DNA of 64,000 nt, taken from the NCBI GenBank assembly GCA_027310185.1, contig DAIDBH010000006.1:96001-160000 (forward strand), in the 5' to 3' direction. A model generated the notes under the pieces. That model was given only the letters and a program-made list of their open reading frames with translations, ran no database searches and was not told the DNA's origin. The position numbers were made by a program, and so were the translations under genes. Of the stretch, positions 52,984 through 58,213 are shown one piece after another; the first letter of the stretch is position 1; every line of letters starts with the position of its first letter. Source of the stretch: Thermoplasmatales archaeon (GTDB lineage Archaea > Thermoplasmatota > Thermoplasmata > Thermoplasmatales > Thermoplasmataceae).

Positions 52984-55362
52984 CTATCCCTCCATGAAAC
53001 TATCAAGTGTAGTGTTCTTGCTGTTGCGGACTGCCTGTGGTTTTTTTCCTGACCTAGATGCCTGTTCAACGAGATGTATTGGCTCGTCGAGACTCTCAAA
53101 CACCCGGTTTACGGTTTCTTCAACTCTTTTTGCGTAATAAAGCCAGTCCGGTTCATCCTCAAATTTCTCTCCATCAATATATGGCTCTACTTCCTGCGGT
53201 GTCACCCTGCTATTCGTGACTATCCATGAGACCTTCATTCCTGGAATGAATCTCTCACCTCTTTCCTGTAACTTTCTTGCAGCCCTTACGTTTGCCATGG
53301 AATCAGCGTTTGCATAGGAGGCAGAATCTTTTACCGATCTAGAAATAACAAGTTTAGAAATATCGATGGTACTGTCTCCACGGATGAGCCTTTCTATAAT
53401 GTCAACTGCATTTTCTCTTGCTCCTGATACGTCTTTGTTCATCAGCGAATCGAATACAGATTGTAGCAGTTCACTCTGCATATCAAAGGAATCAGTTCTC
53501 CTTACCTCGTATCCCCTCACAAGCATTTCTCCAGCACTATCCATTGGATAGACTATCTTTCCCACATATCTTTTCTTTGCTCCATGGGAGAAGAATGGGT
53601 CCATGATCTTCTCAAACTCTATAAGAATGTGAAGATCATCAGAAATTTCCCTGCTCAGATCATTTCCCATCTTAATTGCTTCACTGAGTTCTTTTTTTCC
53701 TGATTCAATGAATACGCTATCAGTATCACCGTATATCACTTTCAGGTCCTTCTTCTTCAGCTTATCTATGAGACCCATGATCGTGTTTCTTGCGAAGGAC
53801 GTGACGGAACTTCCAAGTTCAGGATTTGTGAATCTGTAGAATGATGAAGCGAGTACACCATAAAAGGTATTCATAAGTATTTTTATTGCGTTCTGTACAC
53901 CATCCAGGTAATCCCTTTCATCGCCCTTAGCCTGCTTCATCAGCTTTTTGACCTGATCTCTCCTGTCCATCAACGTCTGCAGCAATTCTGGAATCAACCC
54001 TTTCCTTACAGACGGATCCAGAAACCTTGCGCCTGTAGGCGAAATTATGGTTCCATTTTCACTGAGTGTTGTGAAACATATATTGTATTTCATAATTATG
54101 GACGGATACATGCTCTTGAAGTCAAGCACTATTACCATGTCATATAATCCTGCACCAATGGATTCCACATGCCCGCCTTCTATGGCCCTGTCCTTCAGCG
54201 CCTGACTTGCAGTCATTGGAACTGCTATATTTCTCTGTGTTGCCAGCCTTATGAGCAGTGAATCTACATAATTACTTGTCCCCCCATTTGTTGTATCCTC
54301 CAGTGGAAGTTTCGTTACAGTGGACATGAACATATTTCTATCCACGACCCGCATTTTTTCCATGATTCTCAGTGTCAGATCAGCATCCTTAATGCAGTAA
54401 TCAATCACCTCCTTCGGCCTGTTTTTATATTCTTCCATGATGTTGAGCCTGTCAACGTCATCCTTTCCTTCATTCAGGAGTTCCATTGCGACGTAATTAA
54501 GTGTTTCATGTTTTGGTTTCAGGATCTTCTTCACATTCCACCAAACATCGCTGATTATCCTTCCCTTAACCCTCCAGAACTGGCCATTGATCCTCCTTGC
54601 CTTTGTTCCATCCCTTCCTATATCAAGTGTGAGGCCGTATCTTTCCATCCTGTATTCAATTACAGGTAGATCGTAACCATCAATGTTGTATCCTATGATG
54701 ATATCCGGATCTTTTTCCAGTACAAGCTTATTAAAATTTGATAGAATCTCCTTCTCTTCCCCAGTAATGGCACCTTTCTCTGGTTCTACCCCTTTCCTGC
54801 TTCTTATGGAATATCCTATTACTATGATCTTACCGAATGTATCTCCTTCATCGGGAGGGAATGCATTTTCTATATCAAAACTGAGCACCCTTACATCAGG
54901 TGTGAAATCGTCCGTTGTCTTTATGCTCTTGATATCGGATCTTAATACCATGTCTGTATGATATCTATTCCTGTCAATGACCTCCTCACCTTCAACCTCA
55001 ACACATGCACCAAGATCAAGATCATAGATGAATCTGTGATGGAATGGTATATCTGCAGCCATTACCGTTGAAACAAACAGGGAACGTAATTCCGGCACTT
55101 TATATGGATGATTGACATAAATTCTTATTGCTTTCCTTGTCTCCCCCTTGACCCATAATTCAAGTTCCTCCATTCTCTTAAATTCAGGATTTTTCTTGAT
55201 TCCTTCTATTTCCTGCTCTTTTGGTTCTATAACGTCAAAATATGGATCAAAACCGCCACACAGGACCGTTACTGATGAGCCGTCAGCTGTCCTCCCAAAA
55301 ATCTCCACAACCGTATCTGAAGTCCTGTATGAGGATGAAATTATTCTAAGGCTTATTTTCAT
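52984..55362 (-). CDS. polB: Family B DNA polymerase
   Basis: Exonuclease motifs SFDIE, GYN...YD, YC..D; polymerase motifs DFKSMYPS, K.LMN.FYG, YGDTDS, KKRY. Confidence 0.98.
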   Translation of the reverse strand: MKISLRIISSSYRTSDTVVEIFGRTADGSSVTVLCGGFDPYFDVIEPKEQEIEGIKKNPEFKRMEELELWVKGETRKAIRIYVNHPYKVPELRSLFVSTVMAADIPFHHRFIYDLDLGACVEVEGEEVIDRNRYHTDMVLRSDIKSIKTTDDFTPDVRVLSFDIENAFPPDEGDTFGKIIVIGYSIRSRKGVEPEKGAITGEEKEILSNFNKLVLEKDPDIIIGYNIDGYDLPVIEYRMERYGLTLDIGRDGTKARRINGQFWRVKGRIISDVWWNVKKILKPKHETLNYVAMELLNEGKDDVDRLNIMEEYKNRPKEVIDYCIKDADLTLRIMEKMRVVDRNMFMSTVTKLPLEDTTNGGTSNYVDSLLIRLATQRNIAVPMTASQALKDRAIEGGHVESIGAGLYDMVIVLDFKSMYPSIIMKYNICFTTLSENGTIISPTGARFLDPSVRKGLIPELLQTLMDRRDQVKKLMKQAKGDERDYLDGVQNAIKILMNTFYGVLASSFYRFTNPELGSSVTSFARNTIMGLIDKLKKKDLKVIYGDTDSVFIESGKKELSEAIKMGNDLSREISDDLHILIEFEKIMDPFFSHGAKKRYVGKIVYPMDSAGEMLVRGYEVRRTDSFDMQSELLQSVFDSLMNKDVSGARENAVDIIERLIRGDSTIDISKLVISRSVKDSASYANADSMANVRAARKLQERGERFIPGMKVSWIVTNSRVTPQEVEPYIDGEKFEDEPDWLYYAKRVEETVNRVFESLDEPIHLVEQASRSGKKPQAVRNSKNTTLDSFMEG

Positions 55363-55534
55363 CTGTTAAATATGCATATCCGGCTTAAAACAATATCCAT
55401 TATTTCGAATTGTGAACTTTATGGGATGAAAGAAATCTTATCCTTCCTTATTCCATGAACAAATTCCAGGATTGGCATGTACTGAGATTCAATTATAAAA
55501 ACAAAACGCTTTAATAATTTGAGAAAATTTACTC

Positions 55535-55616
55535 ATGTTCAGGGGAGCCATTGGCTGAGAGGATCAGAAGATCGACCCTTTGAACCTGACCCGGGTAATT
55601 CCGGCGGAGGGAGAAG
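55535..55616 (+). ncRNA. TPP riboswitch aptamer (THI element)
   Basis: AGGGGAGCCATTGGCTGAGA...GACCCTTTGAACCTGACCCGGGTAATTCCGGCGGAGGGA: CUGAGA, ACCUGA and P5 CCGG-GTAATT-CCGG signatures, upstream of a transporter. Confidence 0.95.
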
Positions 55617-55694
55617 ATGGATATAATATACGGCATCGTAAAAAGGAGTTTGTTTGTTACAGGTCTAAAATGCGGAGGTTTTCTGTATGAATAA
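55617..55694 (+). CDS. Putative 25-aa leader ORF between the TPP aptamer and the transporter
   Basis: GGAGG at 55606-55610, ATG 55617, MDIIYGIVKRSLFVTGLKCGGFLYE, TAA 55692-55694 overlapping the transporter ATG at 55687. Confidence 0.4.
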   Translation: MDIIYGIVKRSLFVTGLKCGGFLYE

Positions 55695-56916
55695 ATACAG
55701 ATCATCCCTCCTTGCCTCAACGTCCTTTGCATTTATTTTCTGGGGGATAGTTGGTACAATAGGACCGCTTGCTGCATCTGGATCAATAATCGGAAATCTA
55801 AATCACACGGGAAAGCTCATATTTCTCTTGATAGGGCCACTGGTTGTACCAGCAGGCAATCTTTCCATGGGATTTCTTGCTGATGCCATAGGTAGAAAAA
55901 AGGTTTTTCTAATTACAATGTCATTTTATACCATTGGAATTATTGTTATAAGTCTGAGCTACACCTTCATTCCCTTGCTGCTCGGCCTAATACTTGCGGA
56001 ATTTGGAGTTGGTGGTGAAGAACCATCCTCGCTTTCACTGGTGGCTGAAAATACAGATGCAGATAAGAGGCCATTCTGGCTGACGATCCTTACCAATATG
56101 GACAATATCGGCAGCGCCCTAATGGCTGGACTATTTTTCATAGTGGTTAATGATCTGCAGGACAGGGCTGTTCTCCTGATTGGTTCCCTGTTACTGATTT
56201 TGTTTATAGTTGCACTCAGGAGAGTGATCCCGGAATCCCAGATGTGGCTGAAAGAATCGGGTAATACTGATGAATACAGAAAGGAGAGGGAGAAAATAGA
56301 ATTGAGGGATGATGGTGAAAGGATTTCCCAGCCAAGCCTCCTTCCATCCTTCATTTTTCTTGGCGTAATAGCTGTATCTCAGTATCTCACATTCGGCCTA
56401 ATGGCTTACGTTCTTGCCCCCATAGAATTTCCAAATAGCTCTGAAGATGATCTGATCATTTTTGTAGCACTTCTGGGTTCTTCTGTGGCAGGTTTCATTG
56501 CGGCTCCACTTATTTCAAGGGGAAGAAAGAACTATACACTACTTTCTTTCCTGTTTGGCACAGTTACAATGGTTGCAATATTCATAATGGTCCCATACTT
56601 GCAGAACATGGTTATATTTCTTCCACTACTTTTTGCAAACATGTTCATGAGTGAATTTGCCTATGCTTCAAGATCCGTTCTTGAACCTGAACTTTATGGC
56701 ACAAGAAACAGATCAGCACTTATAGGATTAACCAGGTTATGGCCCATGATAGCTTACCCAATATTCACCTTTTACACAAGCAGCCTGAATCTTTATAACT
56801 TTTTGCTCATCAATGTGATACTCTGGGCACTGGGATTGTCTGCGTCTGTTTACTGGTTCTATTTTGGAATTGAGACAAAAAATGCAAACATAGATTATAT
56901 GCCCAGAACCACCTGA
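55687..56916 (+). CDS. MFS transporter, probable thiamine or thiamine-precursor uptake
   Basis: G.LADAIGRK, GVGGE, PES..W, PELY.T..R; located behind a TPP riboswitch. Confidence 0.88.
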   Translation: MNKYRSSLLASTSFAFIFWGIVGTIGPLAASGSIIGNLNHTGKLIFLLIGPLVVPAGNLSMGFLADAIGRKKVFLITMSFYTIGIIVISLSYTFIPLLLGLILAEFGVGGEEPSSLSLVAENTDADKRPFWLTILTNMDNIGSALMAGLFFIVVNDLQDRAVLLIGSLLLILFIVALRRVIPESQMWLKESGNTDEYRKEREKIELRDDGERISQPSLLPSFIFLGVIAVSQYLTFGLMAYVLAPIEFPNSSEDDLIIFVALLGSSVAGFIAAPLISRGRKNYTLLSFLFGTVTMVAIFIMVPYLQNMVIFLPLLFANMFMSEFAYASRSVLEPELYGTRNRSALIGLTRLWPMIAYPIFTFYTSSLNLYNFLLINVILWALGLSASVYWFYFGIETKNANIDYMPRTT

Positions 56917-57043
56917 TCTTATCCTTCCTTTGAAATCAAATATCATGAAGGAAATTTCTACTTTTTAAATATTTCATATTTAATAAGTGAAAACAATCCA
57001 AATTTTATAATAACCGCTTGCTAATTACCATAGGGGAGAATTA

Positions 57044-58213
57044 ATGGCATCGATCGTAGAAATGGTAGACAATTATGGGAGGTACAGGAGGGATGTCCTG
57101 AATCTTCAGGCATCAGAGAATTTTCTCTGCTCTCACGTGAAGATGGCATTGGGAACTGATCTCGGTGGAAGATATTCCCACGTTATGCCGGATGGCAGAA
57201 ATGCCTATGGCGGAACAGAGATGATAGAGAACATTTTCAATGAAACAGAGAAAAACATCAAAACACTATATGGTTCCAAGTTTGCCGAAATAAGGCCGTT
57301 GGGTGGTCATATTGCAGCAGAGATCAGTTTACTGAGCACAATTCAAAAGAACGACACAATAATGGCAATAAGTGAGGAGTTTGGTGGATACACAGGATAC
57401 ATGGAAAACTATCTTCCAGCCATGCTTGGCTTCAAAACAGAATTCATTCCTTACATTGAGGAAAAACAGGAAATTGATTACGATTCGTTTGAAAAGAAGG
57501 CCATGGAGATTAAACCGAAGGCAGTTGTTCTTGGCCAGTCTTTCTTTGTAAAGCATTATGATCTTGCGAGAATAAGGGAAATATGCGATAAAGCGGGATC
57601 AAAACTTCTTTATGATGGTTCCCACATCATGGGACTGATTGCTGGAAAGAAATTCCAGCCAGACGCACTGAAATATTCAGACATTTTATTCGGTTCAACA
57701 CACAAGACATTCTTCGGTCCTCAAGGTGGGATAGTACTTACCAACAATGAGGAACTGGCAGGAAAGATCGGTGAAAATGTTGTGTGGAAAACAATGGATA
57801 ACTATCACCCGAACAGGATTGCAGGCCTTGGTATTGCTGCACAGGACCTTATAACATTCGGAGAGAGTTATGCAGGATGGATTGTTTCAAACACCTATAC
57901 TCTTGCCAGAACACTCAACGATTCAGGCATAGCCATAAAATATGCTCCGTGGTATTCTGAAAGTCACCAGATAATTCTCTCTAAGGATAATTTCCAGAAA
58001 TATGGTGATTTCAGAACAATAAGCAAAAACCTTGAGAATAACAGAATAATAGCAGATACGGAAGGAAGGCTAGGAATGGCTGAAATAACAAGAATGGGAC
58101 TTACAGATATGGTTACACTTGGAGAGATAGTCGCCGATGCCATAAAGGGAAAGGACACGAGAAGCAGGATCACTGAGGTCCTGAGAAATTCCAGCATAAA
58201 ATTTTGCAGGTGA
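57044..58213 (+). CDS. glyA: Serine hydroxymethyltransferase
   Basis: LNLQASEN, YGG, YDGSH..GLIAG, STHKTFFGPQGG, ESHQ, RLG..EITR.G. Confidence 0.93.
   Translation: MASIVEMVDNYGRYRRDVLNLQASENFLCSHVKMALGTDLGGRYSHVMPDGRNAYGGTEMIENIFNETEKNIKTLYGSKFAEIRPLGGHIAAEISLLSTIQKNDTIMAISEEFGGYTGYMENYLPAMLGFKTEFIPYIEEKQEIDYDSFEKKAMEIKPKAVVLGQSFFVKHYDLARIREICDKAGSKLLYDGSHIMGLIAGKKFQPDALKYSDILFGSTHKTFFGPQGGIVLTNNEELAGKIGENVVWKTMDNYHPNRIAGLGIAAQDLITFGESYAGWIVSNTYTLARTLNDSGIAIKYAPWYSESHQIILSKDNFQKYGDFRTISKNLENNRIIADTEGRLGMAEITRMGLTDMVTLGEIVADAIKGKDTRSRITEVLRNSSIKFCR

Follow-up and report, generated by a model that had tools for sequence, protein, structure and literature searches.

To our knowledge, almost nothing has been established experimentally about how archaeal riboswitches act; in the usual account, the Shine-Dalgarno (SD) sequence is hidden in the aptamer. 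Directly acting TPP riboswitches were reportedly first described in Thermoplasma-type archaea by Rodionov et al. in 2002. This 2002 description is cited by 10.1101/538918 and PMC5473149. In bacteria, the B12 riboswitch of Mycobacterium tuberculosis ppe2 targets the short upstream open reading frame (ORF) uPPE2, which overlaps ppe2 in an AUGA motif and is required for ppe2 translation, and the relay from uPPE2 to ppe2 was shown experimentally to occur mainly by termination-reinitiation (PMC11260477). A synthetic device, the ribo-attenuator, combines a riboswitch, a short ORF, a second ribosome-binding site (RBS) silenced by a hairpin, and a TAATG junction (PMC5496857). Furthermore, termination-reinitiation at short overlaps and strict coupling were demonstrated in Haloferax (PMC6728339, PMC10666635).

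The locus analyzed here lies within a stretch of 64,000 nucleotides from a Thermoplasmatales archaeon (the window) and contains the following features:

55492-99 and 55510-17, plus strand: two A/T-rich candidate TATA boxes 5' of the aptamer, both kept in 4 of 5 close orthologues
55531-55629, plus strand: TPP riboswitch aptamer (Rfam RF00059, model positions 1-105)
55534-55540, plus strand: 5' strand of P1, pairing with 55613-55619 (Rfam alignment plus an extension of 2 bp)
55606-55610, plus strand: GGAGG, the SD of the leader ORF; 55607-10 are the 3' strand of P4
55613-55619, plus strand: 3' strand of P1, containing the leader AUG (55617-19)
55617-55694, plus strand: leader ORF of 25 codons with stop TAA at 55692-94, in a frame different from that of the transporter
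55674-55678, plus strand: GGAGG, the SD of the transporter, 8 nt 5' of ATG 55687
55674-55711, plus strand: predicted RBS-locking hairpin, in which 55674-78 pair with 55707-11 and 55682-88 with 55695-01, the loop containing the leader stop
55687-56916, plus strand: MFS transporter of 409 aa (Pfam MFS_1, E = 2.6e-20), presumed to import thiamine or a precursor

The A/T-rich boxes may be promoter elements. The initial annotation had placed a GGAGG at 55606-10, an ATG at 55617 that opens a 25-codon ORF, an overlap of its stop with the transporter start, and a further GGAGG at 55674-78, and all these coordinates were correct. The spacer between the leader GGAGG and ATG 55617 is 6 nt. ATG 55687 and the leader stop TAA are both within ATGAATAA; the leader ends 5 nt past the transporter start, and the overlap amounts to 8 nt. 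The transporter frame contains no start codon between the stop at 55666-68 and ATG 55687, and an SD-based start call (GGAGGT, 7-nt spacer) independently chose the same ATG. Because the 16S rRNA 3' end of the source genome reads ...GGATCACCTCCT, both GGAGG words are true SD matches. The absence of an obvious terminator hairpin, noted initially, was borne out by a scan of 55300-57100 for bacterial-type terminators, which found 0 sites, whereas shuffled sequence had 1.4 on average.

The full-length match to RF00059 scored 70.8 bits, above the gathering score of 54.3 (E = 6.3e-12), and is located in the same-strand 5' leader of a presumably thiamine-related gene. It was the sole TPP match by Rfam in the source genome, which has 1.88 Mb and is 99.5% complete. 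The element is clearly a TPP aptamer beyond chance, and homologous aptamers in the order precede the same MFS family or ThiB-like binding proteins. In the Rfam model alignment with P1 extended, the leader SD lies in the 3' strand of P4 and the leader AUG in the 3' strand of P1. The computed energy of the P1 duplex (55534-40/55613-19) was -6.8 kcal/mol with all three bases of the leader AUG paired, and 90% of the P1 cells were paired across 5 orthologues. According to this model, the region where the upstream ORF is initiated is predicted to be sequestered in the ligand-bound fold, in the manner of uPPE2. Unconstrained duplex folding of 128 loci resulted in 3, 2, 1, and 0 paired start bases in 39, 44, 22, and 23 loci, respectively; such order-wide folding of P1 is noisy, and the placement of the AUG in P1 is used for the window only.

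No specific equivalog of the transporter was found in NCBIfam. The source genome contained no ThiC and no ThiE matches, its Thi4 matches were short and N-terminal only, and ThiD remained below the cut-off. This gene content makes thiamine auxotrophy probable, with reliance on a single riboswitch-controlled transporter. A contig of 1237 nt from an RNA library was 100% identical to 55549-56785 and reaches from the aptamer across the leader into the transporter, most of which it covers; the RNA contigs carry no information on transcript start, level, or strand, and the segments without cover (55392-55519 and 56800-56991) are uninformative. RNA runs X3-X5 contained next to no matching words. In related acid-mine 'plasma' archaea, 10.1101/538918 describes a TPP riboswitch that is expressed and read pairs that reach the downstream putative transporter.

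To assess the leader ORF in the window on its own, we shuffled its interior, and in 12% of 2000 trials the frame was open and the stop was beside the main start. Taken by itself, the leader ORF of this locus could thus be due to chance (p about 0.12), and its significance comes solely from the comparison with other genomes. This comparison was based on 149 TPP matches, found in 112 of 151 sampled genomes of the order, which were classified by what comes after the conserved CG-N-AGGRA junction. In the direct class (75 matches, including L031, which is really of the leader type but truncated at a contig end), a frame of 150 aa or more begins with a start codon at most 12 nt past the aptamer. In the leader class (58 matches), this codon instead begins a short ORF with a long one behind it, and the remaining 16 matches had no such start. 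The aptamers bearing GGAGG (n = 129) were distributed over the direct (74), leader (54), and neither (1) classes. Relative to AGGRA, the start codons of direct loci were 1-7 nt downstream and those of leader loci at -1 to +10 nt. Since the position of the start codon is alike in both, the two classes represent one aptamer-embedded initiation design and differ only in the ORF that is opened. The class counts (58/149) indicate that about a third of the TPP riboswitches in the order would work via a leader and not on the gene directly. The window has the aptamer, the GGAGG within the aptamer with a nearby start codon, and the transporter family in common with the direct Thermoplasma-type riboswitches, which make up 75/149 matches. 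However, the start opens the transporter in the direct type, whereas in the window a 25-codon ORF in another frame begins there and the transporter follows 70 nt farther on.

The position of the leader stop was determined in 53 analyzable leader loci, in which the main start was called blind to the leader, as the start of the long frame with the best SD match. The stop was found -3 to +16 nt from the main start in 43/53 loci, as compared with 3/55 for non-main frames and 4/106 for all frames read from the same point. With one representative per leader-peptide group, the figures were 27/34 versus 2/36 control frames. Comparison of the 34 group representatives with shuffles resulted in a Poisson-binomial P of 2.7e-25; as the loci share ancestry, the P-values reflect the retention of frame and junction during divergence and not independent origins. 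A conserved overlap or abutment of the stop with the main start, as in ppe2/uPPE2, is hence seen in 43 loci and 27 groups. Overlaps of 8-17 nt were recorded among the loci, and the junction is TAATG in L010, L040, L057, L087, and L088.

The SD-based call missed 10 of the 53 loci. Two of these (L128 and L132) belong to a different, ThiB-type platform. The other eight each have an alternative start close by when a nearest-start rule is applied, which is less independent of the leader than the SD-based call. In L018, L025, and L056, this rule gave GTGA, ATGA, and TGATG junctions, and L089 has a GTG 10 nt 5' of the leader stop. The remaining four (L079, L130, L135, and L146) carry ACG where sister loci carry ATG. 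This ACG at the place of the main ATG is found in L079, L130, L135, L142, L143, and L146, all of genus label g3; as compared with the sisters L039, L098, L126, and L134, the SD is kept and the same conserved residues are encoded until an in-frame ATG 24 nt 3'. These g3 loci may employ non-AUG reinitiation, or their start may be shifted to the downstream ATG.

The leader peptides, with lengths of 8-42 codons, formed 34 groups without detectable similarity among the 53 loci. This divergence is illustrated by the five closest orthologues, in which the aptamer is almost invariant and the interior of the leader has diverged with insertions and deletions. Four of their leaders comprise 25 codons and one comprises 23, and four orthologues have the junction ATGAATAA and one has ATGA; the indels compensate each other, and frame and junction are retained. 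Within the genus, the peptide is unrecognizable except at residues that the aptamer and the second SD dictate. The initial annotation had made its reading dependent on the conservation of the leader, and leader start, frame, and junction indeed persist not only in the orthologues but also in much more remote homologues, with drift of peptide sequence and length. It had also considered that the leader might be a frameshifted transporter N-terminus; this is not the case, as the N-termini of the orthologues align from the proposed ATG. Equally, comparison of leader peptides with the N-terminal 60 aa of direct homologues gave no significant similarity, and the only match at E<1e-6 in the direct set was L031, the leader-type locus misfiled there.

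The minimum free energy (MFE) fold of 55620-55730 pairs GGAGG 55674-78 with CCUCC 55707-11 and 55682-88 with 55695-01, enclosing the transporter AUG. This hairpin (55674-55711) has 12 bp, is interrupted, and is predicted to lock the transporter RBS. Because raw MFE values are confounded by GC content, we used z scores relative to dinucleotide shuffles of a 67-nt window per gene start. The hairpin in the window had -16.2 kcal/mol and a z of -4.04 (n = 1), whereas the mean z of 284 SD-bearing gene starts, drawn from the source genome only, was 0.02, with 0/284 as low as -4.04. Leader-type loci (n = 43) had a mean z of -1.33, with 9/43 at -3 or below, and 27 genus/length types of leader loci had a mean of -1.51. 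Against this single-genome background, the Mann-Whitney p was 7e-9 with all leader loci and 5e-8 with the means of the 27 types. A second RBS silenced by a hairpin, as in the ribo-attenuator, is predicted for the window, and leader-type loci are more structured as a class, although several of them have little structure (z near 0). In 5 orthologues, 88.9% of the hairpin cells were paired, a value that was reached by 66/500 shuffles, with a structure derived from one row of the alignment; there was one double change, from G-C to A-U, and the register differs in G144. The initial annotation had granted the transporter a GGAGG of its own. The motif is present, but it is predicted to be locked in the hairpin rather than free, which is why a relay would be needed despite this SD.

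On these grounds, we consider it quite probable that TPP blocks the initiation of the leader ORF and that leader translation is needed to open the transporter start or to reinitiate there. The relay through the leader ORF that the initial annotation had proposed is thereby supported by comparative and thermodynamic evidence. The element would be a translational OFF riboswitch with the short leader ORF, and not the transporter, as its direct target. The TPP-bound aptamer would hold the leader SD and AUG, and ribosomes could not start on the leader. The transporter SD and AUG, locked in the predicted hairpin 55674-55711, would be poorly used alone, with some independent initiation likely, given the good SD. 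At low TPP, ribosomes would translate the 25-codon leader and, as the conserved geometry suggests, melt the 5' arm of the hairpin. Termination would take place in the hairpin loop, 5 nt beyond the transporter AUG; the SD would then be 8 nt upstream of this AUG, well placed for reinitiation or for a newly loading subunit. The terminating ribosome would then reinitiate, or a fresh subunit would load on the opened site, and the importer would be made. The leader peptide would be without a function of its own. When the leader is no longer translated, this may also reduce mRNA stability or permit premature transcription termination (polarity), which would act in the same direction. The OFF direction is expected because of the directly regulated homologues and the apparent auxotrophy; as the downstream MFS family (98 proteins) is split into 49 direct and 49 leader-type members, the same regulatory sign can be argued for both designs.

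The locus might alternatively be governed by polarity as the main relay, a possibility already named in the initial annotation, with ribosome-free leader RNA leading to early termination or mRNA decay and the junction geometry being secondary. Archaea couple transcription and translation, and a factor-dependent termination route can yield polarity; since polarity works in the same direction as coupling, the comparative data fit both. However, polarity alone needs neither a leader stop within a few nt of the main start, which is nevertheless conserved, nor a structured second RBS, and a leader of 25 codons offers little room for a factor. We therefore regard polarity as the main relay as unlikely. 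The leader ORF could also be incidental, in which case TPP would act on the transcript level, by premature termination or decay, or on long-range RNA structure and the transporter would start independently from its own GGAGG. The retention of frame and junction over 34 dissimilar groups (27/34 versus 2/36) speaks against this, as do the indels that cancel out in orthologues, the predicted locking of the second RBS, and the lack of a terminator-like hairpin in the scan of 55300-57100. The transporter SD is canonical and well spaced and the open frame in the window alone has a p of about 0.12, both in keeping with an incidental leader; T-rich runs in the leader could in principle serve as archaeal termination signals, but they are not conserved in G144 and G098. 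Overall, an incidental leader appears quite improbable.

A leader ORF with a negative role, the ribosomes of which occlude the transporter start so that TPP turns expression ON, would resemble the mycobacterial metE uORF, which suppresses MetE. The overlap does put terminating ribosomes on the main start, but homologous MFS transporters, sometimes in the same genome, use the aptamer SD and AUG as their own start, which corresponds to OFF regulation. In addition, a TPP-induced importer makes little sense in an apparent thiamine auxotroph, and a hairpin-locked site suits activation by unwinding; a negative leader is hence very unlikely in our view. Finally, the short ORF might code for a functional micro-protein, such as a subunit of the transporter, and share the regulation of the transporter; the overlap would then be ordinary operon coupling. 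The existence of 34 dissimilar peptide groups among 53 loci, with 8-42 codons and a sequence that is unrecognizable even within the genus save for aptamer- or SD-imposed residues, renders this highly implausible, even though overlapping gene pairs often encode complex subunits, as stated in PMC10666635.

The proposed relay, in which TPP would gate a leader ORF that serves the transporter start, resembles ppe2/uPPE2 in that a translational OFF riboswitch acts where translation of a short upstream ORF begins, and this ORF overlaps the main start. The ppe2 system differs in being bacterial, in its B12 ligand, and in having a separate platform with anti- and anti-anti-sequestering strands, and ppe2 is without an obvious SD (PMC11260477). 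In the window, by contrast, the leader SD and AUG are inside aptamer helices, a strong second SD is predicted to be locked, and the overlap has 8 nt. With the ribo-attenuator the locus shares the order of elements, the predicted opening of the hairpin by ribosomes from the riboswitch-controlled site and, in several loci, the same TAATG. The synthetic device (PMC5496857) is engineered, works in E. coli, and contains about 150 nt of the native ORF as leader, whereas the present arrangement is natural, archaeal, 8-42 codons in length, and conserved across genera. The Haloferax pairs (PMC6728339, PMC10666635) are similar in their stop/start overlap or very short distance and in the SD inside the upstream ORF; they consist of real protein genes, and the leader here is non-conserved and linked to a riboswitch. 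The overlaps of up to 17 nt (8-17 nt) exceed the 1- and 4-nt overlaps at which termination-reinitiation was demonstrated. A short leader upstream of a regulated gene is also typical of trp-type attenuation, but the signal there is ribosome stalling and here a metabolite-binding RNA, and we found no regulatory codons, no terminator/antiterminator pair, and no conserved peptide in the present locus. A leader-peptide transcription attenuator was rejected on account of the 0 terminator-like sites and the unconserved peptides.

The downstream proteins belong to two families. Besides the MFS family, the ThiB-like binding-protein family (28 proteins) comprises 25 direct and 3 leader-type members. In a FastTree phylogeny of 96 MFS proteins, which carries long-branch warnings, the leader type spans several deep clades, with 7 state changes between leader and direct, at least 3 of which are forced by well-supported (starred) branches. 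Leader-type loci were detected in 12 genus labels (at least 11 genera) of one family, 3 loci of a single genus label being of the ThiB kind, and both designs co-occur in some genomes, for example, in G150. In a phylum-wide sample, 11/151 genomes had a TPP match, and most of the six TPP matches outside the order were direct. One of them, L161 (298-1493), comes from a high-GC genome of the same class and involves a different gene family; its aptamer is without GGAGG and is followed by a 14-codon ORF that ends with the TGA of an ATGA overlap with a 384-aa ORF, the N-terminus of which is signal-anchor-like. By its sequence, L161 has the same relay layout with another gene.

Taken together, it seems somewhat probable that Thermoplasmatales possess a natural, modular ribo-attenuator, in which the aptamer gates a disposable leader whose ribosomes open, or reinitiate at, a hairpin-locked RBS, and that this arrangement was kept for long in at least 11 genera beside the direct design and recurs in L161. 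No archaeal riboswitch and no TPP riboswitch acting via an upstream ORF was found in the article texts consulted; Table S3 of 10.1101/538918 may list such loci. PMC2211319 and PMC5397151 contained nothing on riboswitches acting through an upstream ORF. The initial remark that the platform was not recognized as described in archaea thus holds insofar as none was found in print, although the principle itself has bacterial (PMC11260477) and synthetic (PMC5496857) precedents. What is different here is the domain, the ligand, the initiation site within aptamer helices, the strong second SD that is predicted to be locked, the longer overlaps, and the breadth of conservation. If true, this would be the first relay from a riboswitch to an upstream ORF in archaea and the first for TPP, joining riboswitch control to termination-reinitiation, which has already been shown in archaea, and providing a natural counterpart of a synthetic-biology device. 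The relay may free the N-terminus of the membrane protein from aptamer constraints, or set gain or threshold. The model is concrete and testable, and cultured relatives (Cuniculiplasma) exist. Gene callers will miss such leaders or mis-start the transporters.

Several further observations were made in the course of the survey. A third TPP platform has a GGAGG-less junction (GAAGG, CAGG, or TAGG) and was observed in L048, L063, L067, L078, L083, L093, L097, L100, L101, L103, L105, L107, L114, L115, L123, L127, L128, L132, L133, L136, L139, and L140. About 30 nt downstream, these loci carry a conserved pyrimidine run, GGCAGGAG, and then the start of a ThiB-like thiamine-binding gene (TIGR01254), which looks like a bacterial-style sequester/anti-sequester arrangement in archaea. 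In another class of the phylum, L160, L163, L164, and L165 have a GGAGG aptamer directly 5' of a non-MFS membrane protein of ~480-490 aa, and the first in-frame start in L160 is ~30 nt farther downstream than in its relatives. L152 and L158 are short scaffolds with riboswitch, leader, and transporter in a Candidatus Parvarchaeum (ARMAN-4) bin; their transporters have 92-95% protein identity to that of the window, and they are most simply explained as mis-binned fragments of a Cuniculiplasma-like organism. Similarly, the transporters of L010 (G150, genus g1) and L088 (G138, genus g14) are identical and their leaders nearly so, which points to bin contamination or recent transfer.

The RNA contigs also bear on the genes flanking the transporter. 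They end in adapter sequence at 57040 (run X1) and 57066 (X2), and position 57040 is 4 nt 5' of the ATG of an SHMT-like gene (57044-58213), which suggests that the mRNA of this gene is near-leaderless. The DNA-polymerase-like gene at 52984-55362 is divergent (minus strand); contigs covering it run into adapter sequence at 55351 and 55341, which is within its annotated 5' end, and its real start may therefore be downstream of 55362.
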